NCBI GenBank assembly: GCA_040752695.1
Contig: JBFMGO010000144.1
Span: 1-12,688 of the forward strand
Direction of reading: 5' to 3'
DNA length: 12,688 nucleotides
Origin: a bacterium
Lineage (GTDB): Bacteria > SZUA-182 > DTGQ01
Below are positions 1 to 12,688 of this stretch, in pieces. Every line of letters begins with the position of its first letter. The stretch's first letter is position 1. The translations under genes were made by a program, and so were the position numbers. The notes under the pieces were generated by a model. It was not told the origin of the DNA. It saw nothing but the letters and a program-made list of their open reading frames with translations, and did not search any database.

Positions 1-57
1 ACAATCCTCATCTTGGAAGAAATTGCTTATCAGTTTGGAATGGTGAAAAAATTTCCC

Positions 58-86
58 TTGACAGAAAAAATCTATAGAAGTACAAT
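58..86 (+). promoter_or_regulatory. Sigma70-type promoter
   Basis: TTGACA (58-63), 17-bp spacer, TACAAT (81-86), 40 nt upstream of an ATG with an SD. Confidence 0.8.
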
Positions 87-126
87 GAGGTTAATCATGA
101 TAAATAAAAAATTAAATGAGGTCAAT

Positions 127-318
127 ATGGAAAAAAAATATTTAACTACTAAACAAGTTGCTGAATTTCTTACGCTTAGTATTGGTACAGTTAAGGGATT
201 GATAAAAGAAGATAAAATTCCTTACTATCGAATAGGAAAACGAATAGTTTTTGATCAAGAAGAGATAATCAAATGGGTTGAATCACAAAGAGAAGAACCA
301 AAGGCGGCCACAAGATGA
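127..318 (+). CDS. Excisionase-like helix-turn-helix DNA-binding protein (HTH_17-like), 63 aa
   Basis: YLTTKQVAEFLTLSIGTVKGLIKEDKIPYYRIGKRIVFDQEEIIKWV is a typical HTH_17 pattern. Start moved from 13 to ATG 127 because of SD GAGGT (118-122) and the promoter at 58-86. Confidence 0.88.
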   Translation: MEKKYLTTKQVAEFLTLSIGTVKGLIKEDKIPYYRIGKRIVFDQEEIIKWVESQREEPKAATR

Positions 319-611
319 GCACGAGTACACAGGTAGTTGAACTATTCAATATTTTTGCTGAAACCTTTGGTAAAGAAAAGGCTCAAATTGCCATAAAAGA
401 TATCGAGGAAATAATCGATGCACGCAAACAGGATCTTGCTACCAAGGGGGATCTTCTTACAGTAAAAGCAGAACTGAAAGAGGATATCAAGCAAGTTGAA
501 TTGAAGCTTACCAAAGAGATAGAGCAGGCAAAATCGAGCACGATTAAATGGGTTGTTAGTCTCATAATAGCTCAGACAGCAGCTATTATTTCAGTAGTTC
601 TCTTGAAGTAA
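315..611 (+). CDS. DUF1640/CCDC90-like coiled-coil protein with C-terminal membrane anchor
   Basis: LATKGDL neck motif, heptad coiled coil, then IKWVVSLIIAQTAAIISVVLL hydrophobic tail. ATGA overlap with the upstream gene. Confidence 0.8.
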   Translation: MSTSTQVVELFNIFAETFGKEKAQIAIKDIEEIIDARKQDLATKGDLLTVKAELKEDIKQVELKLTKEIEQAKSSTIKWVVSLIIAQTAAIISVVLLK

Positions 612-614
612 GTC

Positions 615-689
615 GGTCTCGAAAGGTGTTACGAGCACCATTCCGAGACCTGGCCAGCATGGTCTTTTGGTGTCCCTACCATGCCGGTT
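615..689. other. Two adjacent stem-loops in the intergenic leader (candidate cis-regulatory or antisense RNA)
   Basis: GGTCTCGAAA (615-624) pairs 9/10 with TTCCGAGACC (641-650) around GGTGTT-ACG-AGCACC. A second imperfect stem pairs GGCCAGCATGGT (652-663) with ACCATGCCGGTT (678-689). Confidence 0.55.
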
Positions 690-694
690 AATGC

Positions 695-703
695 ATTATA
701 CCA
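695..703 (-). promoter_or_regulatory. Extended -10 element on the antisense strand
   Basis: The minus strand reads TGGTATAAT (TGn + TATAAT), pointing back across the 615-689 hairpins. Confidence 0.5.
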
Positions 704-737
704 CAAAGGGACCCCTCCAGAGAGGGAGGGAATTTTC

Positions 738-1085
738 ATGGATCATCCTTCAGATGTTTCTACCACCACATTGCAATCCAGTATTGAGAAATTATTCGGT
801 ATCAGCAATCTTGCCACGACACTATCTTACCAGATCCGGGAGGTTGCCACGGTGATTATCGGCTGCATCCAGGAGCTTAACCCCACGGTGACACCGAAAG
901 GCAGGGCAGAGGATATCGAGATCATGGGCCAGATGACAGTGCAGGAGCTTCGGCAGGTGGTTAATCTTGAGAATACCAGGCAGGGCCTTATAGCTCAATG
1001 GCGGGAAGCTGAGGCACAGAAACAACAGCTTATTGACCAGGCCAGAACACGCATTGCTGACCAGGGAGGGCCGGATCATGCTTGA
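738..1085 (+). CDS. Hypothetical helical protein (115 aa; alternative start 681)
   Basis: Open frame, SD GGAGG at 725-729 before ATG 738, coiled-coil-like C terminus, stop overlaps the next start. Confidence 0.65.
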   Translation: MDHPSDVSTTTLQSSIEKLFGISNLATTLSYQIREVATVIIGCIQELNPTVTPKGRAEDIEIMGQMTVQELRQVVNLENTRQGLIAQWREAEAQKQQLIDQARTRIADQGGPDHA

Positions 1086-1359
1086 AAATCTGTCTCTTTT
1101 TGATCTGCGGCGAATCCTTTGTGCTATGTCTGTAATTCAATCGATGGCTAATGATTTACCGGATAAAAAAACATTAGATGCGGCAATCGAAGAAATTAAT
1201 CAAAAAATCGGTAATCCCCTGGAAAAACTTCTTGGCAAAAGTACACAGCAGGATAAGACGCTTGATAGCAATTCGGCTATTTTGGATAAATATGAGCAGC
1301 AGCTTATGACCGCCGAGCCAGAGAAAAAGCCAAAGAAGAGAGGCAGGGCCGCGAAATGA
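1078..1359 (+). CDS. Hypothetical protein with basic C-terminal tail (93 aa)
   Basis: SD GGAGG at 1065-1069 before ATG 1078, 8-bp overlap with the upstream gene, ends KKPKKRGRAAK. Confidence 0.65.
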   Translation: MLENLSLFDLRRILCAMSVIQSMANDLPDKKTLDAAIEEINQKIGNPLEKLLGKSTQQDKTLDSNSAILDKYEQQLMTAEPEKKPKKRGRAAK

Positions 1360-1586
1360 GCAAGGTATCGAATGATAAAATCACCGTCTCTTTCACCAAA
1401 GACCAATGGGAAGATGTTATTTCCTGCCTTGAAGCGGTTGATAAAGCAAAAAAAATGATCAATACGGGCTTGTTATCAGCCGAAGGTGGATCAAAATACT
1501 TTCTCAAGATGGTTATGCGTATAAAATCGGAGGTTGAAAAATCCTCTCCACAGGCCGAGATAATCAATCTGAATGTTTTTAGATAA
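1356..1586 (+). CDS. Hypothetical protein (76 aa)
   Basis: ATGA overlap with the upstream gene; followed directly by terminator-like hairpins. Confidence 0.65.
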   Translation: MSKVSNDKITVSFTKDQWEDVISCLEAVDKAKKMINTGLLSAEGGSKYFLKMVMRIKSEVEKSSPQAEIINLNVFR

Positions 1587-1590
1587 CCAT

Positions 1591-1660
1591 GGCCTTCGGG
1601 CCTTGCTCCTGGCAGGGGATTTTCCTTGGAAGGGTTTATCTCCTGCCGGGGGCTTTCTCT
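1591..1660 (+). terminator. UUCG hairpin plus 16-bp stem-loop (probable terminator or structured RNA)
   Basis: GGCC-TTCG-GGCC (1591-1602). 1605-1620 pairs fully with 1638-1653 using three G-U wobbles on the + strand, followed by TTTCTCT. Confidence 0.55.
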
Positions 1661-1716
1661 AAATTCCAAACGGTTTGGAATTTGTCCCACGGTGGGATTT
1701 TTCTCACCGTGAGAAA
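1661..1716. repeat. Three adjacent palindromes, each with a 1-nt centre
   Basis: AAATTCCAAAC-G-GTTTGGAATTT (1661-1683), TCCCAC-G-GTGGGA (1685-1697), TTTCTCAC-C-GTGAGAAA (1700-1716). Confidence 0.85.
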
Positions 1717-1769
1717 TTTGACCATTGACCCATGGGGAGGTTTTTAACATTTTTCCTCCCTGGGGGAAT

Positions 1770-2066
1770 GTAACCCACGATACAAACACTGTAACCGGGA
1801 ATGTGACAGGTGACACAGGACAAGGTAACAATCCAAGAGGCTGCACGAATAGCCAATATCAGTAGAAAAACCCTTTACCGATGGATTGAAAAAGGGTTGA
1901 TTTCCAGAGAGAAAGATAAAAATCTTTCCTTTGTGTCCCTGGCCGAAGTCAAAGCAGTATGTGACAGGGTAACAAACCAGCAGGATACAGAGAATGTGAC
2001 AACAGGTAACACTCAGGATGCACAGCAGGATACAATCAGGGTAACAGAGGATACAAACACGGTTAC
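1770..2066 (+). repeat. Two clusters of short GTAAC/GTGAC/GATAC direct repeats (1770-1830 and 1959-2066)
   Basis: 1770-1795 matches 2041-2066 at 21/26. GAATGTGACA at 1799 and 1992. ATGTGACAGG at 1801 and 1959. Confidence 0.75.
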
Positions 2067-2382
2067 ACTTAAACTTGAATATTACAACGGCTTGATAACC
2101 AGGCTTGCAGGGCTGGAGATCGAGCGGCGCTACCTTCTGGAGAATAAAGAGGGACTTGAGGCCAGAGAGCAGGAATTGACCGAGACCAGGGCAGCACTTA
2201 CGCGGGCTAATAGCGAATTAAAGCGGCTCTTGGAAGTGAAAAAAGATGCTGATCAGAAAGCAGTGGTGCTCCTTGACCAGCAAAGAGCACTGGAAGCACG
2301 GGAACGAGAGTTGCGGGAACTGCGGGCAGAGAATGAGCGGCTTAAGTTACCGTGGTATAAAAAGCTATTCAGAAGTAAGTGA
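1810..2382 (+). CDS. N-terminal HTH, linker, long coiled coil and amphipathic C-terminal helix (RacA/pSK1 Par-like architecture)
   Basis: VTIQEAARIANISRKTLYRWIEKGLI HTH, T/Q/D-rich linker, heptad region, ends LPWYKKLFRSK. GTG start without a clear SD. Confidence 0.75.
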   Translation: MTQDKVTIQEAARIANISRKTLYRWIEKGLISREKDKNLSFVSLAEVKAVCDRVTNQQDTENVTTGNTQDAQQDTIRVTEDTNTVTLKLEYYNGLITRLAGLEIERRYLLENKEGLEAREQELTETRAALTRANSELKRLLEVKKDADQKAVVLLDQQRALEARERELRELRAENERLKLPWYKKLFRSK

Positions 2383-2431
2383 TTGAAAATAAATAATATA
2401 ATAGGCTAGACTTAAGGTGATGGTTTAAGAA

Positions 2432-3250
2432 ATGAATGAACTGGATAAAGATCAAGGCAAAAGGGATTTTTTTAATTTTCTTGTAGATGTGAACAAGTGC
2501 TTCCATGCCGACTATGCAGATTACTTTTTTAGATTAAGTGATGTGGCAAAAGGTTATGCCAGAATATTAACTATAATAAAAAAGATAGTTGATTACAGGG
2601 AAGAAGAAGAAAGGCAAAAGAAAAAAAGACTCCCCTTCTATGAGTTGTATAAAAAAATAGAAGACGACCTCAATACTATTTATGCGCGAATGGAAATACA
2701 TCCCGATGCAGACATAGTGTATTTTCCAGGAAGTTTGTGGATAGACGGATTTTTTCATGATACACACGCCAAGAGTGCTATCTATGAAATGCTTGACCCT
2801 AAATTTAAACTTCCCGATAACCTGGAAGATGATTTAAAGCTTGCTGTTCATTGTTCCCTGGGAATTGCCGGTGCTTTTCATTCATTAGCTTGCGGTTCAG
2901 GCGTTGAAATACCTGTAGCTATCTTGCTGTTTTTGTATGACCATCTTAATAATCTAATCGAAAAAACAACAGAACTACTCCACGCGATAGAAAAACGCGA
3001 ATTACTTGGAGACCGGAATAGTAAAAACGCTTCGAGTGTTCATCTTAAAATCAATAAAATCAAATTGAGCGACCAATACCCAAAACTTAAACGAGTACTA
3101 AGCAATTTCGATGGAACACAAGAGGGAAAAACGGCTATTGATAGGATTGTCTCTAAAATTATAAAAACCAGGAACGAAAAAACCCTACGAAAATACAGAC
3201 AATATCTTTTAAATAGCCTTGATGAAGAAAAACAAGAGGTTAATTTATAA
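2432..3250 (+). CDS. Hypothetical protein (272 aa, AT-rich, basic helical C terminus)
   Basis: Long ORF in AT-rich DNA; possible promoter TTGAAA (2383)-18-TAGACT (2407). No family recognised. Confidence 0.75.
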   Translation: MNELDKDQGKRDFFNFLVDVNKCFHADYADYFFRLSDVAKGYARILTIIKKIVDYREEEERQKKKRLPFYELYKKIEDDLNTIYARMEIHPDADIVYFPGSLWIDGFFHDTHAKSAIYEMLDPKFKLPDNLEDDLKLAVHCSLGIAGAFHSLACGSGVEIPVAILLFLYDHLNNLIEKTTELLHAIEKRELLGDRNSKNASSVHLKINKIKLSDQYPKLKRVLSNFDGTQEGKTAIDRIVSKIIKTRNEKTLRKYRQYLLNSLDEEKQEVNL

Positions 3251-3253
3251 TTC

Positions 3254-3315
3254 TTCGCGGTAAAAACGATTCTTTTTACCGCGAAATATCACGGTAAAAA
3301 CGATTCTTTTTACCG
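3254..3315. repeat. Direct duplication of a 24-bp inverted-repeat unit
   Basis: CGGTAAAAA-CGATTC-TTTTTACCG at 3258-3281 and 3292-3315. The first copy extends to perfect 13-bp arms (3254-3266 and 3273-3285). Confidence 0.92.
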
Positions 3316-3343
3316 ACTATTTTTCGATAAGTCAATAAGTTAC

Positions 3344-3372
3344 TTGATAAACTTATCAAAACAAGATAAGAT
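3344..3372 (+). promoter_or_regulatory. Putative promoter of the replication operon with an overlapping palindromic operator
   Basis: TTGATA (3344-3349), 17 bp, TAAGAT (3367-3372). The palindrome TTGATAA-AC-TTATCAA (3344-3359) covers the -35. Confidence 0.55.
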
Positions 3373-3397
3373 ATATTCAATTAAACGAAAGTGACCC

Positions 3398-3517
3398 AAA
3401 AAGCGAAAAGGGCTTAAATCAGCTTACCGACCAAGATACTCTGATTTAAACCCTCACCATCACGCTACCGGCTTTTTTTATCCAGTAACTATTTCGCTTC
3501 GGCTGTAGCTACAGCCT
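3398..3517 (-). ncRNA. Candidate counter-transcribed antisense RNA (about 120 nt) over the replication operon leader
   Basis: Minus-strand promoter TTTACT (3552-3547), 17 bp, TATAAA (3529-3524) with TGn extension. A 14-bp stem (3409-3422 with 3441-3454) has its single mismatch as G-U only on the minus strand and is followed there by TTTCGCTTTTT. Confidence 0.4.
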
Positions 3518-3526
3518 TTTTTATTT
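3501..3526 (+). terminator. Intrinsic terminator (possible attenuator) upstream of the RHH-rep genes
   Basis: GGCTGT-AGCT-ACAGCC followed by TTTTTTATTT. Confidence 0.65.
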
Positions 3527-3573
3527 ATAACACATTGATTTAAAAAAGTAAAGATAGAAAGGAGTCAAGGTTA

Positions 3574-3756
3574 ATGGTAATCGAGGACAAAAACTATGTA
3601 ACAATTTCTTTTCCCTGCCCAAAGTCAATCCACAAAAAACTGAAAATGGTTGCCACGGCAAAGGGTAAGACCGTCAGAAACTTCATTCTTGAATTGTGTA
3701 CGGAGGATCTTTTTGAGCGACCGGAAAATAAAGAATTGCTTGCTGGATTGAAGTAA
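3574..3756 (+). CDS. Ribbon-helix-helix DNA-binding protein (CopG/ParG-like)
   Basis: VTISFPCPKSIHKKLKMVATAKGKTVRNFILEL fits the beta-strand/helix/G-x-T/helix RHH pattern; SD AAGGAG at 3559-3564. Confidence 0.75.
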   Translation: MVIEDKNYVTISFPCPKSIHKKLKMVATAKGKTVRNFILELCTEDLFERPENKELLAGLK

Positions 3757-3770
3757 GGCAGGGCCGGAGG

Positions 3771-4592
3771 TTGGATCGAGGTTGGGTTAAACTTTGGAGA
3801 AAATCACTGGATAGCCAGATATGGCAGAATGCAGAATTATGGCATTTATGGTGCTGGTGCATCCTCAAAGCTACTCATAAGCCAATATGGGTAAAAGTAA
3901 GAACCGGCAAGGGATTCACGGAGGTTAATCTTGAGAGAGGTCAATTTATCTTCGGGAGAAATCAAGCCGCAAAAGAACTGCATCAAAAACCATCCTCAAT
4001 TTACAAGCGATTGCTAAAATTAAAAAATCTTCAAAATTTGATCATCCAAGATAACAACCAATTTTCTATAGTAACTATTTGTAATTATGATCTTTATCAG
4101 CCAGAGAAAGAAGAGGAAGGAACAACCAAGGGAACAACCAAGGAACAACCAAGTAGCACAAACAAGAACAAAGAGCATTTAGAGAAGGAAATAAAAAAAC
4201 CTTCTTCCTTGCCAAAAAAAGACTTGGCAAGGGGGGGGTGTGTCCCTGAAATTCCCTACAAAGAAATCATCGACGATCTAAACGAGAAAGCAGGGAAGCA
4301 CTTTTCCCCTGCTACCAAAGACACGCGGGAACATATCAACGCACGATGGCGGGAAGGCTATCGCCTGGACGACTTCAAGCAGGTGAACACCGTCAAGTCT
4401 GCCCAATGGCGAGATGATCCACACTGGAATAAATTTCTCAGGCCGAGTACTTTGTATAATTCGGAAAAATTCGAGGGATATCTGAACGAGAACACAGATA
4501 TTAAGCCACAGGAAACGCCAGAGGACCAGGCCGCAAGAGAGAACAACGAGGAGATTATGAGACGGTTGAAGGAGAAAGCCAAACATGACTGA
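3771..4592 (+). CDS. Phage-type replication initiator with conserved phage C-terminal domain (Phg_2220_C-like)
   Basis: N-terminal GWVKLWRKSL..W and LERGQFIFGR ... SIVTICNYDLYQ typical of phage initiators. C-terminal IIDDLNEKAGKHF...ARWREGY...FLRPSTLY..EKFEGYLNE. Internal iterons; precedes a DnaB-like gene. TTG start. Confidence 0.88.
   Translation: MDRGWVKLWRKSLDSQIWQNAELWHLWCWCILKATHKPIWVKVRTGKGFTEVNLERGQFIFGRNQAAKELHQKPSSIYKRLLKLKNLQNLIIQDNNQFSIVTICNYDLYQPEKEEEGTTKGTTKEQPSSTNKNKEHLEKEIKKPSSLPKKDLARGGCVPEIPYKEIIDDLNEKAGKHFSPATKDTREHINARWREGYRLDDFKQVNTVKSAQWRDDPHWNKFLRPSTLYNSEKFEGYLNENTDIKPQETPEDQAARENNEEIMRRLKEKAKHD
4119..4232 (+). repeat. Iterons and inverted repeat within the initiator gene (probable replication origin)
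   Basis: GAACAACCAAG at 4120, 4132 and 4143, then an A-rich tract and CCTTGCCAA-N8-TTGGCAAGG (4207-4232). Confidence 0.7.
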
Positions 4593-5868
4593 TCGAGTTT
4601 TTGAGAGACAGGTCTTATGCTGCATCCTGCTAGATAATAAGCTCATCTACCAGGCCATACCGCAGCTATCAGACGATGATTTCGAGGATTACCGGAATGT
4701 ATCTATTTTCCGGGCCTTGAAAAAGCTTATTGTCGAGGAAAAACGTGATGCCGATATAGCCCTCCTGAGAAACCTTGTCGATTTCGAGGACTCCGGCTCT
4801 TATCTTGTCGATATCTTCAATGCACTTCCTACGGCAGGGCGTATTGATAACTATATCCAGCAGGTGAAGGAGTATTCAGCCAAGAGAGCTTTATACAGGC
4901 ACTTCCTGGCATCGACAGAGGAAGTGAAAAAACTTGACAAGCTTAATTTCAAGGAATGGCTAAACCAAAAAGAGGCTCAATTCACTGGCATTCTCAACAG
5001 CTATCGTAAGGAAGTGGTCAAGGATTCATTCAATCCGAAGGTTTACACTCAGAGAATGCGTTTTCTTTATCAGCAGTATCGAGAAAATCAGGCAGATTGC
5101 AGGGGGCCTAAGACCGGGTTTAGGATTCTTGATGAAATGATGGGAGGCTTACGGCTCCTGAATATCCTGGCCGGGACCACCGGGGCGGGAAAATCGACTC
5201 TTGCACAAAATATAGCCCTCAATATTTCCATTCAGCAGGGCATACCTGTTCTGTACATCAACTACGAAATGGAAGCAGATGACTTGCACTGCCGAATGAC
5301 TTCATGCTTATCTCAAGTCAAGTCTGACAAAATTAAGGCTGGGCGCTGTAGTGTTCAGGAATGGGCAGCGGTTGACGCTGTTATAGACCTGATCGAGAAA
5401 ACCGGAACTTTGCACATTACGGATAATGCAAGCCGCGACATTAACGACACTGTAGCTTTGATTCACTACTACAAACAGCGATTCGGGGTTAAAGTCGTTT
5501 TCGTGGATTACATCGGAGAAATAGAGGGTGATTCCCTGGCCCACAAAGAGCGGAACGAATATATAACTTATGGCCGGTATACCCAAACATTGAAAAATAC
5601 CTGTTCCTCTCTTGGTATCCATTGCTTTCTGGTTGCTCAATTCAACAGACAGGGCGATAAGGACAAATCTCCGCAAAGAAGTAATATTCAAGGCTCATGG
5701 AAGCTTATCCAAAAGGCTGATGTATTCATGGCCTTGCACTACGACGACAAGGAAAAGCAGCACAATTTGACAATCCAAAAGCAAAGACATGGAAAGTATC
5801 CATACAAGATAGGCTTTAATTTTCATAAAGATATTCACAAGTTTGAAGAAATACCAATGATGTTTTGA
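4585..5868 (+). CDS. dnaB: DnaB-like replicative helicase (SF4), phage type
   Basis: N domain ERQVLCCILLD...LSDDDF..YRNVSIF, Walker A ILAGTTGAGKST, YEM catalytic Glu, Walker B VFVDYIG, AQFNR, IQKAD, KQRHG arginine finger. 8-bp overlap with the initiator gene. Confidence 0.92.
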   Translation: MTDRVFERQVLCCILLDNKLIYQAIPQLSDDDFEDYRNVSIFRALKKLIVEEKRDADIALLRNLVDFEDSGSYLVDIFNALPTAGRIDNYIQQVKEYSAKRALYRHFLASTEEVKKLDKLNFKEWLNQKEAQFTGILNSYRKEVVKDSFNPKVYTQRMRFLYQQYRENQADCRGPKTGFRILDEMMGGLRLLNILAGTTGAGKSTLAQNIALNISIQQGIPVLYINYEMEADDLHCRMTSCLSQVKSDKIKAGRCSVQEWAAVDAVIDLIEKTGTLHITDNASRDINDTVALIHYYKQRFGVKVVFVDYIGEIEGDSLAHKERNEYITYGRYTQTLKNTCSSLGIHCFLVAQFNRQGDKDKSPQRSNIQGSWKLIQKADVFMALHYDDKEKQHNLTIQKQRHGKYPYKIGFNFHKDIHKFEEIPMMF

Positions 5869-5925
5869 ACGGTGTGACCCTGGCGGCTGCAATCCAGCAG
5901 GGCCACAAAAAACGGAGTTTAAACC

Positions 5926-7299
5926 ATGAATAGGGTAGTAGAAATCGAGCTTGGTTGTCAAATCACGCTGGATAAAAACCAGCTACCGACCAGGCTCCTT
6001 GACCAGATCAAGAGCTTTTTGACGCTGGATAACCCACGGTACAAGCAAGCTGATGAGCATGGATACAGCACTTATGGTATCGCAAAGTTTATCTATGCCT
6101 ATCACGAGGATGAATCTTGTCTCTACGCATATCGCGGCTACATCGGCTCCTTGCTGCCATTCCTGACGAGAAGCGGGTTGCAGTATCGAATCATCGATGA
6201 TCGGCGCAAGTTGCCGGAGATCGAGCTTTCTTTCCGTGGAACACTGCGACCATACCAGGAAAGAGCGGTTACTGAGGCACTCAGGAAGGATTTCGGCATT
6301 GTGGTTGCGCCATGTGGGGCCGGAAAAACGGTAATAGCTTGCGCGGTTATCGCATCCAGGAAACAGCCTACACTCATTATCGTCCATACCAAGGAGCTTT
6401 TGAATCAATGGCGCGATAGGCTTACTCAATATCTCGGTATTCCTCTTGATGAGATTGGGGTGATCGGTGCCGGAAAAGAGCTTATCAAGCCCATTACGGT
6501 GGGTATGGTTCAAACACTGGCAAAGCGTGACCTGGCAGAGATTCGGCAGCACTTCGGCCAGATTATAGTTGATGAGGTTCATCATTGTCCGGCGAGCACG
6601 TTTAATGAGGTTATCACATCCTTTGATTGCCAATATCAATTGGGGCTTTCGGCCACTCCATACCGGCGTGATGGCCTGGGGAAGCTGATCTATCTTACCC
6701 TTGGCAATGTGGCCACTGAGATTACAGATAGAGACCTGCAACAGGCCGGGACCAGGATAAAACCTGAAATCGTGGTCAGGGAGACCGGCTTTGATTTCGA
6801 TTACTGCGAGGACTCCGACTATCAGCCTATGGTAAGTGCTCTTATTGCAGATCCAGAGCGAAACGCTTTGATATGCGCTGATGTGATTTCGGAGAATCAA
6901 TCCGGGGAAAACCTTTCCCTAATCCTCTCCGACAGGAAAGCTCACCTTGCAGACCTGGCCGAGTCTCTTCATAACTTCGGGGTTGACTGCGCTATTCTCA
7001 CTGGCGACGTACCAAAGAAGCAGCGGGAGCAGATTATCCGGGATGCCGAAGGTGGAAAGCTTCGGGTGATCCTGGCGACTGGGCAGCTTGCCGGGGAGGG
7101 GCTTGACCTGCCAAAGCTTAACCGGCTGTTCGTGACCACTCCGATCAGATTCAGGGGCCGGATTACTCAATACATCGGGCGGGCGCTGAGGACGGCGGAG
7201 GGCAAGACCGATGCCAAGGTTTATGATTATGTGGACCCGGTTGGTATATTGCAATCAAGCTATCGGAGCAGGCAGAGAGTATATGATAGTATCAATTGA
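5926..7299 (+). CDS. Superfamily 2 DEAD/DEAH-box helicase (XPB/SSL2/ResIII-like)
   Basis: Q motif LRPYQ, Walker A APCGAGKT, DEVHH, SATP, GEGLDLP, QYIGRALR; SD GGAG near 5914. Confidence 0.93.
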   Translation: MNRVVEIELGCQITLDKNQLPTRLLDQIKSFLTLDNPRYKQADEHGYSTYGIAKFIYAYHEDESCLYAYRGYIGSLLPFLTRSGLQYRIIDDRRKLPEIELSFRGTLRPYQERAVTEALRKDFGIVVAPCGAGKTVIACAVIASRKQPTLIIVHTKELLNQWRDRLTQYLGIPLDEIGVIGAGKELIKPITVGMVQTLAKRDLAEIRQHFGQIIVDEVHHCPASTFNEVITSFDCQYQLGLSATPYRRDGLGKLIYLTLGNVATEITDRDLQQAGTRIKPEIVVRETGFDFDYCEDSDYQPMVSALIADPERNALICADVISENQSGENLSLILSDRKAHLADLAESLHNFGVDCAILTGDVPKKQREQIIRDAEGGKLRVILATGQLAGEGLDLPKLNRLFVTTPIRFRGRITQYIGRALRTAEGKTDAKVYDYVDPVGILQSSYRSRQRVYDSIN

Positions 7300-7533
7300 T
7301 ACAACGTCTGATAACATACCATATGTAAACTTAAGTTTACCGATTGCCTATAACCTCTTGTAATGATTATGCTTGTGAATACATAATTAAACCTGTTCAT
7401 TAACTGCACTGTTCACGAATTGCACAGCAGATAAGGTGCTGATAAGATTGATCGATATCGTAAGATATAAGATAGGTTAAAATAATATCATAAGTGATAA
7501 GGAAAGAATGAGACAAGGCAAGAGACAAAGGGA

Positions 7534-7546
7534 TAAGTCATTGATT
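7534..7546 (-). promoter_or_regulatory. IHF consensus site
   Basis: The minus strand reads AATCAATGACTTA, an exact match to WATCAANNNNTTR, just upstream of the cos-like site. Confidence 0.5.
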
Positions 7547-7582
7547 ATTAGTGGGTTAGATGGGAGGTGGGGGGGTAGGGAT

Positions 7583-7660
7583 AGGTACTTCCGGGCCAAT
7601 AGCCAATTGCTGTTTCGGCCAAAGGCTCGTTATTTTTCTACGCCGGAATTTCAAAAAATA
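7583..7660 (+). other. Putative lambdoid cos-like packaging site
   Basis: AGGTACTTCCGG resembles lambda cosQ context (GGGTCCTTTCCGG). CTCG and a T-run follow 36 nt after the heptamer, echoing the right side of cosN. It lies immediately upstream of a Nu1-like gene. Confidence 0.45.
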
Positions 7661-7694
7661 GGGTGTCAGTCAGTCAACCAAGGGAGATAAGTAA

Positions 7695-7982
7695 TTGAAA
7701 AATAAAGCTAAGAAAAATGATAAAATAGACGAAAATAAAGTAGAAATAGGTGAATTTTGTGAAGTTAAGCGAAAAGAATTTTTTTGTTACACTGCCGAAG
7801 GGCTTGGGCAAGTGCTAGGAAAATCAGAGAGATGGGTACACCGAATGTTAAAAAAAGGTGCTCCTGAAAAAGAAGAATTTTCCAAGGGTAAGTTTGGTTA
7901 TAGTACCGTCGCATGGACTCATTTTTTAATTTTCTATGAGCTTAAGTTTGGTGGTCAAACTAAAAATAGTGAAGACGATTGA
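7695..7982 (+). CDS. Nu1 (small terminase)-like winged-HTH protein, short form (Rpp-like candidate)
   Basis: TAEGLGQVLGKSERWVHRMLKKGAP...GKFGYSTVAWTHFL aligns by eye with lambda Nu1 NKKQLADIFGASIRTIQNWQEQGMP...GNEVLYDSAAVIKWY. TTG start with SD GGAG at 7683-7686. Confidence 0.62.
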   Translation: MKNKAKKNDKIDENKVEIGEFCEVKRKEFFCYTAEGLGQVLGKSERWVHRMLKKGAPEKEEFSKGKFGYSTVAWTHFLIFYELKFGGQTKNSEDD

Positions 7983-8011
7983 TTTTGCAGGCTTTTGAGA
8001 GGGAATAAATA

Positions 8012-8212
8012 ATGACTACACAGCAGATTATCACCGAAAAATGGCTCACAGTGCCAAGTGTCGCACGGCGGCTCGATATGTCCGAATCATCGGTTAGAAG
8101 AGAGATTAAATCCGGGCGACTCCGGGCCTATAAATTCGGCAAGCTTATAAAAATCTTGGAATCGGACGTGCTTGTATACCGTGAAAGCTGTATTGTTTGC
8201 CCTCAAAATTGA
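8012..8212 (+). CDS. Excisionase-like HTH_17 DNA-binding protein
   Basis: WLTVPSVARRLDMSESSVRREIKSGRLRAYKFGKLIKILESDV; SD GAGGGA. Confidence 0.88.
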   Translation: MTTQQIITEKWLTVPSVARRLDMSESSVRREIKSGRLRAYKFGKLIKILESDVLVYRESCIVCPQN

Positions 8213-8219
8213 TGATTTC

Positions 8220-8255
8220 ACGCCATTTGCACCATACGCACCATTGACGCCACAA
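8220..8255 (+). repeat. Four tandem 9-bp imperfect repeats
   Basis: ACGCCATTT GCACCATAC GCACCATTG ACGCCACAA (core RCRCCA). Confidence 0.8.
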
Positions 8256-8259
8256 CCTA

Positions 8260-8287
8260 TTGATAATATAGCTATATCTGGTAAAAT
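8260..8287 (+). promoter_or_regulatory. Promoter giving a probably leaderless transcript
   Basis: TTGATA (8260-8265), 16 bp, TAAAAT (8282-8287) with TGn extension. ATG 8294 lies 7 nt downstream and has no SD. Confidence 0.6.
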
Positions 8288-8293
8288 ACTAAT

Positions 8294-8854
8294 ATGCAAA
8301 CACAGTATCTTTCAGTTTCAGAGACAGCACAGGAACTATCTTTGACACGTAGTGACGTAAAAAAGCTTATCGGTGAGGGGAAATTAATCGCCTATACTTT
8401 CGGTAATGACCTGCGTGTTAATGTCGTAGATTTGCAAAATTTCATTAAAAAATCAAAGGTTGAGGTATCAATGAACTCATACGAATTAGCAACAAAATAT
8501 TTGTTTCATGTGGTACAGGCATGGAGTACGTCCGGCGAAGATGGTTCGCTTGCTCAGGCTCACGAAAAAATTTCCGCCGTTTTTCCCGCAGGTAGTCAGG
8601 CTTACCAGCAGCATAAAGAGGAAATTCTTAACGACAGCGGCAAAAATCAGGCTTCGGCATCATCCACACAGCAGGCCACACCGTCAACAAATCCTGCATC
8701 GGCTGGATTATCGGCAGGTGATCGGCTTAATAAGTTGATCGAGGCGAAAATACTTCAGAATCCGAAAATGAGCTACATGGCCGCTTTTAATGAGGTTCAG
8801 GTTGAAAATCCTGAGCTTACGAAGCAGTACGAACAGGAGATCTATCATCGATGA
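8294..8854 (+). CDS. Excisionase-like HTH fused to a helical domain with a phage scaffold-like C terminus
   Basis: YLSVSETAQELSLTRSDVKKLIGEGKLIAYTFGNDLRVNVVDLQNFI HTH, in-frame internal ATG 8471 with SD GAGGT, S/A/T/Q linker, C terminus AGDRLNKLIEAKI...MSYMAAFNEVQVENPELTKQY. Confidence 0.75.
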   Translation: MQTQYLSVSETAQELSLTRSDVKKLIGEGKLIAYTFGNDLRVNVVDLQNFIKKSKVEVSMNSYELATKYLFHVVQAWSTSGEDGSLAQAHEKISAVFPAGSQAYQQHKEEILNDSGKNQASASSTQQATPSTNPASAGLSAGDRLNKLIEAKILQNPKMSYMAAFNEVQVENPELTKQYEQEIYHR

Positions 8855-9462
8855 GCAATTCTTATATTAACAAAATCAAGCAGATCGAGCAGGACATTGC
8901 CAAGACCATCGAGCGGCTAACAGCTACGCAGCAAAAAGTTAATGAGCTAAAGCCACGGATTGAAAAGGCTGAAACCTTATACCGCGAACATAGAAAGGCT
9001 CTCGCTTTGTCAGAAAATGTTGACAAGCGGGGCGTCTCTGAAGCTCAGAAAACACTCAATTTTCTCAGGAGCGACCTGGACGAGGCTGTTATCTTGGTTG
9101 AAGCACTGGGAGATAAGCGGGTGCAGCTTGAAAACGACCTTGTAGCAGCTAAACAAGCTCTGACGGACCACGAAAATGAAATTCTTTCAGGCAAAGCTCA
9201 AAAATTGGTCGATGATTACACCAGGGCCATTACCGAAGCTTACAGTGCTGCATTCAGGTTGAAACTTGTTAGCCAACGGGTAACGGCTAACAACGGCTCA
9301 CTAAAGTTTGACTATCCACTCTCAACCTTTGAGGCTTTTGAGCTGGTTTACCAAGGCTTTCCACTTCTTGAAAGTGGCGACGGTGGATACTGCCGGAAAC
9401 TTTCCAGCAAGTATCTAAAACCGGAAGAGATCCAAGCTATTTGGGCTGATTTATTGAAATAA
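8851..9462 (+). CDS. Long coiled-coil hypothetical protein (203 aa)
   Basis: Heptad-rich for about 140 aa; ATGA overlap with the upstream gene. Confidence 0.8.
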   Translation: MSNSYINKIKQIEQDIAKTIERLTATQQKVNELKPRIEKAETLYREHRKALALSENVDKRGVSEAQKTLNFLRSDLDEAVILVEALGDKRVQLENDLVAAKQALTDHENEILSGKAQKLVDDYTRAITEAYSAAFRLKLVSQRVTANNGSLKFDYPLSTFEAFELVYQGFPLLESGDGGYCRKLSSKYLKPEEIQAIWADLLK

Positions 9463-9563
9463 ATCTTCCATCCCGTGAACGACAAAGCGCGAGTTGGATA
9501 TCAAGGGCGGGTTAAATCCTTCTCCCTCCTTTGAAAATTAAAATTATCCAATTTTATCTAAGC

Positions 9564-9597
9564 GGCCAGTGCCTTACGGGGCGCTGGCCAATTTTTT
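9564..9597 (+). terminator. Intrinsic terminator
   Basis: GGCCAGTGCC pairs with GGCGCTGGCC (one G-U), followed by AATTTTTT. Confidence 0.7.
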
Positions 9598-9609
9598 AGA
9601 AAGGTTAAT

Positions 9610-11979
9610 ATGAAAAAAATAATTATCGCAATATTAATATCTTTTACTTTATTTTTTGCCTTCAATGTTTGTGCACTCACTCAATTTCGGCGTACAACAC
9701 TTACCGGCGTAACTGGGATGGTAGGAATAAATGGCGCATTGCTCAACGACGGAGACCTCTGTCAAGTGGTTGACGCAAACAACTTTATTTTAACTTATCG
9801 CCTTGACTCCGATTCCGGGGCCACCGAATCAAGTCCTGAGATTTTGGCTCCTACTACCAATCCCGGATCGAAGAGATGGATCAGACAGCACAATTTTCGG
9901 GACCGAATCTCAATTGGTGAATATAGTGATAGTCTGGCTACAGCGATAGCCAATGCCGGAATATTAAAAAGAACGGTTTATATTGACACCAACATATCGC
10001 TTGCTTCAAATGTCATTGATCCAAACAATTTGAGCATGGAGATCGGGAAGAACGGCATTGTTCATCTCGGAAACTACAACTTAACCATATGGGGAGATTT
10101 TGAGTGTCCTTCGAATCATCAGGCTTTTGTGTATGACGGAACGGGAACCGTTACTTTTAAAAATCGTCCGCCTGTAGCGCATCCTGGGTGGTGGGGAGTA
10201 AAGGCGGATGGGGCTACAGATGATACAACAGCTCTCCAAAGTGCCATTAATTGTGGTCTGGGGTGCTATCAACTTCCACAAGGGATAATCAAGCTGACAT
10301 CTTCCGTTGTATTGAAAAATCCAATGAGGCTGATTGGGAGCGGTCACATAACTGATGTCTCTGGAGTGGGAACCTTGATCTGGGAAGATACAAATGTTCC
10401 GGCAATTTACTTGAATGGGCACGATTATAATATTCAAGATTCTTACCTTGCCAATTTTGATATCGTATCAGAGGGTGACGGTATCAAACTTTACGAATCG
10501 CATCGGAATACTATTCAGGATGTCCAAGTAAAGGCCGGGACAAAGGGGTGGGGGTTTGTCCTTGATGGATCTTACGAAAACAGGCTAATAGCATGTACAG
10601 CCACGACCAACGGATACAGCCCTCATACTTATACTACCGGCTATGCAGGTCATTTTGCCGGAGGGTTCCGTCTTTACAAGGGGGCGGCTTCTTACGGGCC
10701 GAACGCATCAGAATTAATTAATTGCATCGCTTCGTGTGGGGGAACGGGTGTCTATATTGGTGACATTGCTGCAATGTATGCAAATATTTATGGCGGCACC
10801 TTCGAAGGCAATGATTATAATTTGCATATAAAATCAGTTACTTTGCCTGTTAATATTCACGGATCTCACTTTGAAGCCGCCGAAGTCGAAAATATTAAAT
10901 TGGAGTCGGTTTCGGACATTCATTTTTATGGCATCGGCGCGATGGGTACAGGGTTGTCGAATCAATCTGTAGAAATGGTTTCGGCTACCAATTGTACTTT
11001 TAGTGATTCTTACTTGGGGTATGTGGCAATCGATGCAAATTGCCGGGACAATATCTTTAAAGATTGTACTGCGTATCATACCTATTTCGAAGATGCCGGG
11101 ATAGGCACGGAAATTATAAATTTAAAGAACCGATCAACGGATGAATACGGATATGGAAATCGCACTGATGTTGGAGTAGCCAATTTAGTAACCAACGAAG
11201 ATTTCGAACGGTGGGCAGACCCAAACACTCCTTGCGACTCAATAGAGCAGACCTGCTATGCCACAAAAGAGGGAACGATTATTAAATTCGGCACTTACTC
11301 TGCAAAAATCGAGAGCAATGGCACTTATTCGGGGCTTAGATATAATGATCTTGGCGCAAAGTTAAAATCGTCTTATCTTACAATATCTTTCTGGTTGTAT
11401 GTTCCGACCGGGGCGACGGGGAATTTTGGTATTCGTGTATACGGATTGGATACATCTTGTATTGTCTGGGACAGCGCAGCCGCTATTGGTTTTGATTCCT
11501 GGAAGAAAAAACAGTATACGGTCTATGTTGGTTCTCCAGGTTCTGCCAGGAGATCTGGATCGATTGACGTTGCGGTAATCTGTGCTGGCGATGCCGTTGG
11601 CTCTACCGGATATATAGACGGGCTGGCTGTTTGTGACGGAAGAAACCAGGCAAACATACCGGATGTCAGTGCGGTATCAATCGTCACTAATCGAATAACG
11701 AGCGGATCTATTGCTCCTGCTTCCGGTGGGTATATTCAGGGGGATGTAGTATTAAATTCTGCTCCTGATGCAGGAGAACCATCCGGCTGGATGTGTACCG
11801 TATCAGGCAGTCCTGGTACATGGGTAGCGACAGGCCAGGTTGGATATAGATCGGGGTCGGGGGCTCCAAGTGTCAATGCGAATTTCGTGGGGGAAGATTA
11901 CCTGGATACAGGGGCAAGTAAGTGGTATAAGTCAATAAGCACCGGATCGGGAGCGGGCGATTGGGTAGCGCTTAATTAA
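9610..11979 (+). CDS. Tailspike/depolymerase-like right-handed beta-helix protein with signal-peptide-like N terminus and CBM-like domain
   Basis: MKK, hydrophobic stretch and VCA cleavage-like site. WWGVKADGATDDTTALQSAIN (pectate_lyase_3/GH55-like start), N/G/I-rich beta-helix repeats, NLVTNEDFE (CBM-like jelly-roll start), and APASGGYIQGDVVLNSAP..GEPSGWMCTVSGSPGTW tail-protein motif. Confidence 0.85.
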   Translation: MKKIIIAILISFTLFFAFNVCALTQFRRTTLTGVTGMVGINGALLNDGDLCQVVDANNFILTYRLDSDSGATESSPEILAPTTNPGSKRWIRQHNFRDRISIGEYSDSLATAIANAGILKRTVYIDTNISLASNVIDPNNLSMEIGKNGIVHLGNYNLTIWGDFECPSNHQAFVYDGTGTVTFKNRPPVAHPGWWGVKADGATDDTTALQSAINCGLGCYQLPQGIIKLTSSVVLKNPMRLIGSGHITDVSGVGTLIWEDTNVPAIYLNGHDYNIQDSYLANFDIVSEGDGIKLYESHRNTIQDVQVKAGTKGWGFVLDGSYENRLIACTATTNGYSPHTYTTGYAGHFAGGFRLYKGAASYGPNASELINCIASCGGTGVYIGDIAAMYANIYGGTFEGNDYNLHIKSVTLPVNIHGSHFEAAEVENIKLESVSDIHFYGIGAMGTGLSNQSVEMVSATNCTFSDSYLGYVAIDANCRDNIFKDCTAYHTYFEDAGIGTEIINLKNRSTDEYGYGNRTDVGVANLVTNEDFERWADPNTPCDSIEQTCYATKEGTIIKFGTYSAKIESNGTYSGLRYNDLGAKLKSSYLTISFWLYVPTGATGNFGIRVYGLDTSCIVWDSAAAIGFDSWKKKQYTVYVGSPGSARRSGSIDVAVICAGDAVGSTGYIDGLAVCDGRNQANIPDVSAVSIVTNRITSGSIAPASGGYIQGDVVLNSAPDAGEPSGWMCTVSGSPGTWVATGQVGYRSGSGAPSVNANFVGEDYLDTGASKWYKSISTGSGAGDWVALN

Positions 11980-11981
11980 TA

Positions 11982-12266
11982 ATGATCAGTCTTGATTATT
12001 GCAGTATCCAGCCAGAGCAAGAGGACGGTGAACAGGCGTGTTCCCTGGAATTTTCTATGCTAAAACTTGCCGGAGCAGTTTTGGAAGTGGCGCTCATGGA
12101 TATTCAAAACAATTTCGAGCGGGATCAAGCTTTAAGATGGCTTTTCAATGACAACGACGAATATATTTTCAGTTTTCGATCTATCTGCCAATTACTTAAC
12201 ATTAGCCCTTGGCAGATCCGGCGAAGCGTGAAATCCTACCTGGCAAAGCATGGGCACAGAGCATGA
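11982..12266 (+). CDS. Conserved-looking hypothetical protein of phages/mobile elements
   Basis: LAGAVLEVALMD...ALRWLF...FSFRSICQLLNISP..IR resembles a recurrent uncharacterised small helical family. Starts 2 nt after the upstream stop. Confidence 0.7.
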   Translation: MISLDYCSIQPEQEDGEQACSLEFSMLKLAGAVLEVALMDIQNNFERDQALRWLFNDNDEYIFSFRSICQLLNISPWQIRRSVKSYLAKHGHRA

Positions 12267-12688
12267 TCAACTCACCAAAGATAATCCGGCTGCCACATCG
12301 AAGGACTTCTCTTATCGCTTCATTCCTGCGGGGCAGAAATGTTCGGACGGCTCAAGGATATGAGCGGGATCTGACCGACTTTGCAGGATGGCTGAATGCT
12401 GCCGACATCGAGGGGGCCGCGAAATCTCTCCTGGAGGGCGGACAAGGGGAGGCTAACCGGCTGGCACTGGATTACCGAGCAGCACTCATTGACCGGGGGC
12501 TCTCTCCTGCCACAATCAACAGAAGGCTCTCTACTCTCAGATCATTGGTAAAGCTGGCGCGGACATTGGGCCTTATATTCTGGACCCTGGACGTTGAGAA
12601 TATACGGGCGGCTCCTTATCGTGATATCAGGGGGCCGGGCCTATCCGGTTATCGTCTCCTCTTGCAGCAGGCCGGTAAGATCGGCGGG
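12263..12688 (+). CDS. Tyrosine recombinase (XerC-like), N-terminal core-binding domain; truncated by the window end
   Basis: Absent from the ORF track because there is no stop in the window. Manual translation from ATG 12263: MINSPKIIRL...FLRGRNVRTAQGYERDLTDFAGWL...ALDYRAALIDRGLSPATINRRLSTLRSLVKLARTLG...YRDIRGPG. T..Y..DL.DF and SPATINRRLS.LRS are SAM-like integrase motifs. Confidence 0.9.
   Translation, partial: MINSPKIIRLPHRRTSLIASFLRGRNVRTAQGYERDLTDFAGWLNAADIEGAAKSLLEGGQGEANRLALDYRAALIDRGLSPATINRRLSTLRSLVKLARTLGLIFWTLDVENIRAAPYRDIRGPGLSGYRLLLQQAGKIGG

Follow-up and report, generated by a model that had tools for sequence, protein, structure and literature searches.

Positions 7583-7690 of the 12,688-bp stretch of DNA analysed here (the window) on balance appear to form a conserved packaging signal of the gpA type, which would be used by the terminase of a helper phage. 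The 95-aa gene behind the signal would, in the same reading, be a truncated remnant of a small-terminase gene, dispensable for the site. The element as a whole is likely a PICI-like satellite with a lineage-specific cos variant and a vestigial TerS stub. Most of what has been established on cos-type satellites comes from enterobacteria and staphylococci. The cosQ-cosN variant described below is common to otherwise dissimilar elements; it provides a sequence handle for further elements and for the helper, and its conservation predicts the map position of the helper's virion ends. A TerS decoy reduced to its domain would, if true, test the minimum of Rpp that is needed, but the evidence favours a remnant. 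The more surprising leads may be the element's scaffold-tail gene and a head-tail cluster present throughout the genus.

The window and its genes

The window is the complete contig C144 of a 6.0-Mb genome (G000). Its layout is that of a single small mobile element, running from an excisionase-like gene and small ORFs through an initiator, DnaB-like and SF2 helicases, the site, the 95-aa ORF, two HTH_17 genes, a coiled-coil gene and a tailspike-like gene to the start of a tyrosine integrase. The contig lies wholly within the element, and neither end matches another contig of the genome. The features surrounding the site are as follows (G005 is a genome of the same family).

13-318, plus strand: excisionase-like HTH_17 gene at the contig start (family-profile matches)
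3255-3315, no strand assigned: two near-identical, partly palindromic 27-bp repeats at a spacing of 34 bp, in front of the initiator gene; a candidate origin or operator/regulator site
3771-7299, plus strand: replication module with initiator, DnaB-like helicase and SF2 helicase (profile matches)
8012-8212, plus strand: HTH_17 excisionase-like gene, the first of a tandem pair; such a pair also precedes cos in the G005 elements
8294-8854, plus strand: HTH_17 domain continuing in frame into a 127-aa part; the latter has a GAGGT of its own and an ATG at 8471
8851-9462, plus strand: 203-aa coiled-coil protein; the G005 cos elements have a coiled-coil gene at a similar place, a likeness of position
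9610-11979, plus strand: 789-aa tailspike-like protein, two stretches of which match a gene of the Mu-like prophage in contig C92 at ~50% identity
12263-12688, plus strand: N-terminal part of a tyrosine integrase, interrupted by the contig end

None of the 18 window ORFs scanned matched a terL, portal or capsid family. The PICI features present are the integrase N-terminus, the HTH_17 regulators and the replication module, which consists of initiator and helicases, not of a primase-replicase; the replication genes are intact open reading frames. PICIs are expected to lack tail, holin, portal and terL genes. Portal, terL and capsid matches are indeed absent, but the 789-aa ORF is of the tail type and matches a tail-fibre PHROG (E 3.6e-7). 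The element, small as it is, has no tail gene besides this tailspike-like one. A 94-aa ORF at 11982-12266 had no family match in profile scans and is 38-42% identical to the final gene of the Mu-like cluster on contig C44 described below.

Relatives of individual window genes occur in several settings. A second host contig (L002, C190 of G000) carries paralogues of the window's left arm with up to 79% DNA identity. Homologues of the ORF at 315-611 are present on several host contigs and in loci L198, L269 and L270, which are tandem arrays of small integrase-plus-primase elements with many repetitive coiled-coil genes. Helicase-based searches returned 35 distant viral loci at 27-29% identity, and two G005 contigs that otherwise have little in common with the window.

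Architecture of the cos-like site

The original prediction combined an IHF consensus, a cosQ-like AGGTACT and a cosN-like right flank, followed by a short gene. These parts were located as follows.

7534-7546, minus strand: exact match to the IHF consensus, upstream of cosQ; probably incidental
7583-7592, plus strand: cosQ-like 10-mer AGGTACTTCC, scoring 16.4 bits with a weight matrix built on 35 cos sites of gpA phages
7607-7630, plus strand: variant cosN-like site, a 24-bp imperfect palindrome around an 18-bp core (7612-7629); it agrees with phage cosN in its right half, matches weakly in its left half and is 1-3 bp longer than phage sites
7631-7690, plus strand: cosB position with a T tract, a conserved GAATTT-AA motif and short TCAG repeats (alignments of related sites)
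7695-7982, plus strand: 95-aa orphan ORF with a lysine-rich N-terminus and a MerR/TerS-class winged HTH (residues ~30-85), without oligomerisation or TerL-binding tail

For reference, 80 IMG/VR loci with a gpA-type TerL were reduced to 53 RGGT(A/C)CT candidates and further to 35 non-redundant sites with a cosN-like left half. The AGGTACT (7583-7589) agrees with the cosQ consensus of this set, as the 16.4 bits of the 10-mer compare with a leave-one-out median of 14.9 for the phage sites. The cosN-like right flank, AAGGCTCG plus T tract, is present at 7622-7638, and the right half scored 7.2 bits (phage median 6.6). From the start of cosQ to the right end of cosN we counted 47 bp, a phage-like spacing that is also found in 9 of the 35 phage sites; the distance is 47-48 bp among the conserved copies described below and 43-47 bp in the phage set. 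The best cosN left half reached -2.3 bits versus a median of 9.8, which derives from 35 training sites picked for their left half, a selection that favours left-half scoring. The length from the cosN left half to the right end is 21 bp, versus 18-20 bp in the 35 phage sites. On the fixed-length phage model, the whole site reached 7.1 bits, where the leave-one-out median is 32.4 and 54 positions of the host genome lie above 8 bits. The original prediction cautioned that the cos match is loose and the cosN spacing unlike that of lambda; the fixed-model score is low and the cosN is 1-3 bp longer than in the 35 phage sites. With the inner spacer freed post hoc, the site scored 18.4 bits and ranked second among 12.06 million host positions, above 5 of the 35 left-out phage sites and below the cos of lambda and cos1 of EcCICFT073 (22.7 bits each).

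A loose pattern derived from the window had five matches in IMG/VR, four of them ~100 bp before terS and a gpA-like terL. At a contig end, the fifth match is another copy of the same phage; in all, the matches stem from two independent phage groups. In bacterial genomes, 1 of 27 matches to the pattern preceded terS-terL and 21 lay within long ORFs; these matches are mostly chance, and such patterns are not diagnostic alone. Combining cosQ with AGGCTCG at free spacing gave nine matches, none of them near gpA.

The exact IHF consensus stands as a sequence match, but we rejected it as a functional part of the site. It lies upstream of cosQ, the genome contains 381 such matches, and none of the six related sites has an upstream copy; the match is therefore regarded as incidental. 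One of the six has the consensus downstream of the core start. In lambda, the IHF site I1 is located in cosB (PMC9026076). In the window, neither a lambda-like R3/R2/R1 set within 7631-7690 nor an IHF consensus after cosN was seen. The full cosB set of R repeats and IHF site is also missing from PICI and N15 sites (PMC9026076).

Conservation of the site among small elements

A cosQ scan of five related genomes yielded 19 matches, one of which, in the same-genus genome G001, has the identical 18-bp core GTTTCGGCCAAAGGCTCG, with cosQ at -29/-30 from it. The core itself had 63 matches in a metagenome scan. Four of these have RGGT(A/C)CT at exactly -29 or -30, two of the four lying 7 kb apart on one contig; a fifth match has a one-letter variant of cosQ, and the remaining 58 look like chance. 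Finding cosQ at -29/-30 in 4 of 63 matches corresponds to a binomial P of 3e-8, or of 5e-6 if the two same-contig copies are counted once (three independent copies). The invariance of the core is partly built in because the core was the query, whereas the position of cosQ is independent of the query.

Among the five less-related copies, the mean pairwise identity was 0.84 for cosQ, 0.37 for the spacer and 0.57 for the 25 bp downstream. The spacer thus kept its length while its sequence drifted; in the window copy, the cosQ 10-mer and the 18-bp core are fully retained. A length-constrained, sequence-free spacer between cosQ and cosN is also found in the reference phage cos sites. On the flexible phage model, the six other copies scored -0.8 to 10.7 bits, which leaves the window copy as the best of seven. 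We consider conservation among elements to be stronger evidence for a cos than the model scores. A lack of upstream conservation among related elements would have counted against the original prediction, but cosQ and core recur with fixed spacing in G001 and in the metagenome elements. The cos-like reading, with a gpA-type architecture conserved among related small elements, is better supported than when first proposed. A model of the seven sites had full-length matches only in G000 and G001 among 151 genomes, and when run on 76 loci of phages and elements it matched once (E 0.0075), at a true cos whose locus came from the window-derived pattern and hence is not independent.

Some copies are part of small elements that encode a primase or helicase, and others lie next to excisionase-like genes. 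The G001 contig shares four window genes at 27-60% identity, L269 and L270 share one at 61-65%, and L231 and L218 share none. Since the carriers differ in their replication and recombinase genes, we see no element-encoded protein that they have in common. The site points in the direction of the replication genes in some copies and against it in others. Behind the core, two of the six other copies have an unrelated 134- to 135-aa gene of the HTH_Tnp_1/HTH_23 type, and four face a convergent gene, two of these on short contigs (2.2 and 3.4 kb). The number of symmetric palindrome pairs is lowest in the window (5 of 12); it is 9 of 12 in G001, L269 and L270, and the other copies fall within 6-9.

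These observations bear on the foremost alternative, which we nevertheless rate as unlikely. The motif might be a binding, nicking or recombination site, origin-like or att-like, for a protein of the element or the host, with the cosQ match being inherited or coincidental. Such a function would fit the occurrence in both orientations, the two copies 7 kb apart on a contig of tandem elements, the poor scores of most copies on phage cos models and the outcome of our phage searches, in which no cognate phage was found. It would not explain why the second conserved block equals the phage cosQ consensus at phage spacing, and the carriers offer no evident common protein to act on the site. A terminator or RNA hairpin was rejected; substitutions in the left arm are not compensated, contrary to what an RNA hairpin would show, and a search of Rfam with the site gave no match.

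The 95-aa ORF

The ORF has an intact frame and a TTG start with GGGAG just upstream, a plausible ribosome-binding site. Its product begins with a lysine-rich extension of ~27 aa that was absent from the first description. The last predicted helix spans residues 71-85 and is followed by 10 residues, the stop codon, 30 bp and the next gene. The protein had been described as ending about 17 aa after its domain; the short tail proved real, with a measured length of 10-14 residues. The absence of a long coiled coil and a TerL-binding tail was borne out by the TerS profile match, which covers only positions 15-48 of the 179 in the profile. Apart from one 33-residue low-complexity match, no homologue was detected among 5.8 billion proteins of similar length, 1.84 billion representatives and the 19 other genomes of the phylum set (20 genomes including the host). 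None of the six other site copies is followed by a homologue.

The designation as a Nu1 homologue is weakly supported. The protein had no Pfam match at E<=0.1 and none to PF07471; the terS profile PHROG57 was reached with E 0.048 (0.027 for the trimmed sequence) and lambda Nu1 by BLASTP with E 0.14. In the Atlas, its features pointed to DUF1441 (0.91) and Nu1 (0.90), and its structure to HTH_17 and AlpA at a TM of ~0.5. A full TerS HMM of 62 sequences gave 16.0 bits for the ORF and 15.6 bits for the element's own excisionase. We then compared two profiles, of 42 TerS domains and 29 excisionase-like domains, with each excisionase left out in turn. The ORF scored 15.9-17.3 bits on the TerS HMM (31 columns) versus 9.1-9.5 bits on the excisionase HMM. 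The difference of +6.4 to +8.2 bits is above that of all 29 excisionases (maximum 2.1) and below that of 39 of the 42 TerS domains; RppA reached +20.8 bits. None of the 360 shuffled sequences that scored (of 500) attained the TerS HMM score. By hhalign, the probability was 94.9% over 31 columns for TerS versus 84.3% over 27 columns for excisionases. In a tree of 73 rows the ORF was nested within TerS, at the end of a very long branch (2.84). The set was then thinned by dropping five misplaced or long rows and afterwards every second row (20 TerS, 14 excisionases); AU tests on it rejected neither the TerS nor the excisionase placement (p 0.50 and 0.39). The clear grouping with generic excisionases that would have contradicted the original prediction was not observed by HMM or hhalign. 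In structural comparisons, a single-sequence model had a pLDDT of 68, Foldseek returned nothing at E<=0.001 in PDB or BFVD (Nu1 1j9i was third, E 0.82), and the top match of a wide structural search (Z 5.1) was to unrelated helical proteins. Taken together, the 95-aa protein is probably a winged HTH of the MerR/TerS class that leans weakly to TerS.

The original prediction went further and proposed an Rpp-like redirector of packaging. Rpp proteins are 139-154 aa long (PMC9026076). Residues 65-139 of RppC form helices 4-6, which dimerise RppC and add contacts that favour Rpp-TerS over the TerS homodimer (PMC6739421). The 95-aa protein has neither the C-terminal dimerisation domain nor the length of an Rpp. 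Its similarity to RppA amounted to a BLASTP E of 0.26, RppA itself scored 32.5 bits on the TerS HMM compared with the 15.9-17.3 bits of the ORF, and RppC (6hlk) was absent from the PDB sequence matches at E<=10. By the features tested, the 95-aa protein is not an Rpp. The redirector proposal is not supported, given an orphan protein without the C-terminal helices that is missing behind the six other sites, the RppA E value and a genome in which no helper TerS was found.

As an alternative, this model of the original prediction ranks second, and we judge it improbable. As a functional minimal analogue of Rpp, the protein could pair through its winged HTH with the DNA-binding domain of a helper TerS, bind the R site of the element and block or redirect packaging. 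The gene begins 66 bp past the core, the position of terS or rpp in the published layout (PMC9026076). The TerS scores exceed the excisionase scores by HMM and hhalign, the Atlas features include DUF1441 and Nu1, and the RppC winged HTH itself mimics the second TerS domain (PMC6739421). Set against this, nearly all true TerS domains (39 of 42) show a larger TerS-minus-excisionase difference, there is no room for helices 4-6 with their extra TerS contacts, the RppA match is poor, the orphan is absent behind six of six other copies and no gpA-type helper was found in the host.

Searches for a helper phage

None of 57 core matches in IMG/VR has cosQ, none of 58 matches to cosQ plus half of the core precedes a gpA-type terS-terL, and an exact 18-mer from cosQ had no match in IMG/VR. 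The best INPHARED match to the site had E 0.8. In the host genome, no gene matched gpA or Nu1, and a helper TerS of this type was likewise not found there. Only 1 of the 20 genomes of the phylum contains gpA, with a different cosN, and TerL of G005 used alone as query retrieved no viral relatives. The open-access literature searched contained no paper on this site or lineage.

The best gpA-type cos of the host is at position 5116 of contig C186 (28-30 bits) and follows a 709-aa primase-like gene, named by eye. No terS was found between this cos and the contig end ~520 bp later. Judged by its sequence, C186 is a second cos-bearing small element in the host.

A precedent for a terS stub and a model for packaging

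Contig C161 of G005 carries a tandem HTH_17 pair, a cos, a 200-aa terS and a gpA-type terL. Contig C160 of the same genome has the same HTH_17 pair and nearly the same cos, followed by a 149-aa gene whose N-terminus resembles that of terS (PHROG57 E 9e-6). The last 45 aa of this gene are 49% identical to the gene following terL in C161 (E 2e-10). C160 is best read as a deletion of the terS C-terminus and terL that left a fusion. In the window, the HTH pair lies directly behind the stub and is homologous to the G005 pair (50% identity for the first gene). As no remnant of a terS C-terminus was found after the stop of the 95-aa ORF, the proposed truncation draws on the example of another element. 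On three G005 contigs (L057, L056 and L197, i.e., C161, C524 and C160), small genes and a coiled-coil gene come after cos, terS and gpA-type terL, and one copy has lost terL; no capsid gene was evident by eye on these contigs.

We propose the following model. The element, whose initiator and helicase genes are present, would replicate by means of these proteins. A helper phage would provide TerS and TerL in trans, and its gpA-type terminase would nick within ~7607-7630 and package rightwards. The 95-aa stub may have arisen through loss of the terS C-terminus and terL, as in the G005 element, and is likely dispensable.

The third alternative, which strikes us as distinctly doubtful, is a former cos that has decayed in the window together with its gene, the element being defective and its packaging a thing of the past. 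Decay would fit the left arm, less symmetric here than in any other copy (5 of 12 pairs versus 6-9), and an ORF with a GC3 of 0.24, a low-complexity start and the branch of 2.84, but the cosQ 10-mer and the 18-bp core are intact though the spacer drifted, the replication genes are open and the copy scores best of seven on the phage model.

The scaffold-tail gene and a Mu-like head-tail cluster

Over its last 57 aa, the ORF at 8294-8854 shares 51-56% identity with the scaffold tail encoded by the genus's Mu-like protease/scaffold gene (56% for the gene on C44, E 6e-14). The ORF may be a pair of genes that became fused when a stop codon was lost, or it may encode a tether between DNA and capsid. 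Among proteins of 69-223 aa, the 127-aa scaffold-tail part matched only itself, and the Atlas placed it with unnamed viral clusters (0.93, recognition below the bar).

The protease/scaffold gene on C44 belongs to a Mu-like head-tail cluster of 13 genes, among them terL, portal, protease, capsid, tail tube, tape measure and two small genes. The cluster is syntenic at three loci.

L001 (G000 C44), 184-12334
L337 (G002 C1), 5241-17734
L338 (G001 C133), 121-12649

All 13 genes have the same order in the three genomes of the genus, with a capsid identity of 88-91% and differing upstream neighbours. On C44, no terS was seen in the gap before uvrA, and neither an integrase nor replication genes were seen. 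The capsid had no match in 17 other genomes of the phylum. The cluster is a candidate for a domesticated operon resembling a gene-transfer agent. Its terminase is not of the gpA type, and the cluster therefore does not explain the cos.

These leads can be assembled into a broader scenario, to which we give less credence than to any alternative above. Satellites of this little-sampled phylum would form a family with a longer cosN of its own, used by a gpA-type helper that is yet to be discovered and whose cohesive ends differ. The window would be a member equipped with a TerS decoy consisting of the DNA-binding domain only, with its own tailspike and with a scaffold tail, possibly tethered to DNA via the in-frame HTH, that is aimed at Mu-like heads such as those of the domesticated cluster.

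Comparison with known systems

A close parallel is the cos1-rppA module of EcCICFT073, a Gram-negative cos PICI (PMC6092414, PMC6739421, PMC9026076). This is likewise a small integrative element in which a replication module is followed by cosQ, a cosN-like site and a winged-HTH gene, without terL and without a phage-like cosB. RppA has 144 aa, dimerisation helices and homologues across PICIs, whereas the window encodes an orphan without these helices; the PICI cosN is nearly identical to that of the helper, whereas the window cosN matches no phage found; and the window lacks a lambda-like capsid gene and has tailspike-like and scaffold-tail genes instead.

The PICI model of SatelliteFinder (PMC10085698) shares with the window an integrase, excisionase-like regulators, a replication module, a possible small terminase and a size of ~13 kb or more. 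The window differs in having an initiator, DnaB and an SF2 helicase in place of a primase-replicase and no capsid-morphogenesis match, and it carries a tail-type gene, which the model forbids.

With lambda and other gpA-type cos sites, the window shares the RGGT(A/C)CT of cosQ, a spacer of constrained length and variable sequence, the right half of cosN, the T tract and the start of a winged-HTH gene within ~100 bp. It departs from them in a length of 21 bp versus 18-20 bp, a weak left half and a cosB without R repeats or I1. Unlike lambda gpNu1, the 95-aa protein has no oligomerisation and TerL-binding domains, and no terL accompanies it. The wHTH genes of the cos-terS(-terL) elements of G005 have no detectable match to the 95-aa ORF, and these elements differ in their cosN and in the position of the HTH pair, which precedes cos in G005 and follows it in the window. 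They are not described in the papers cited here. They share with the window the tandem HTH_17 pair, a cos, a TerS-like winged HTH, small genes and a coiled-coil gene, and one of their copies is likewise without terL.
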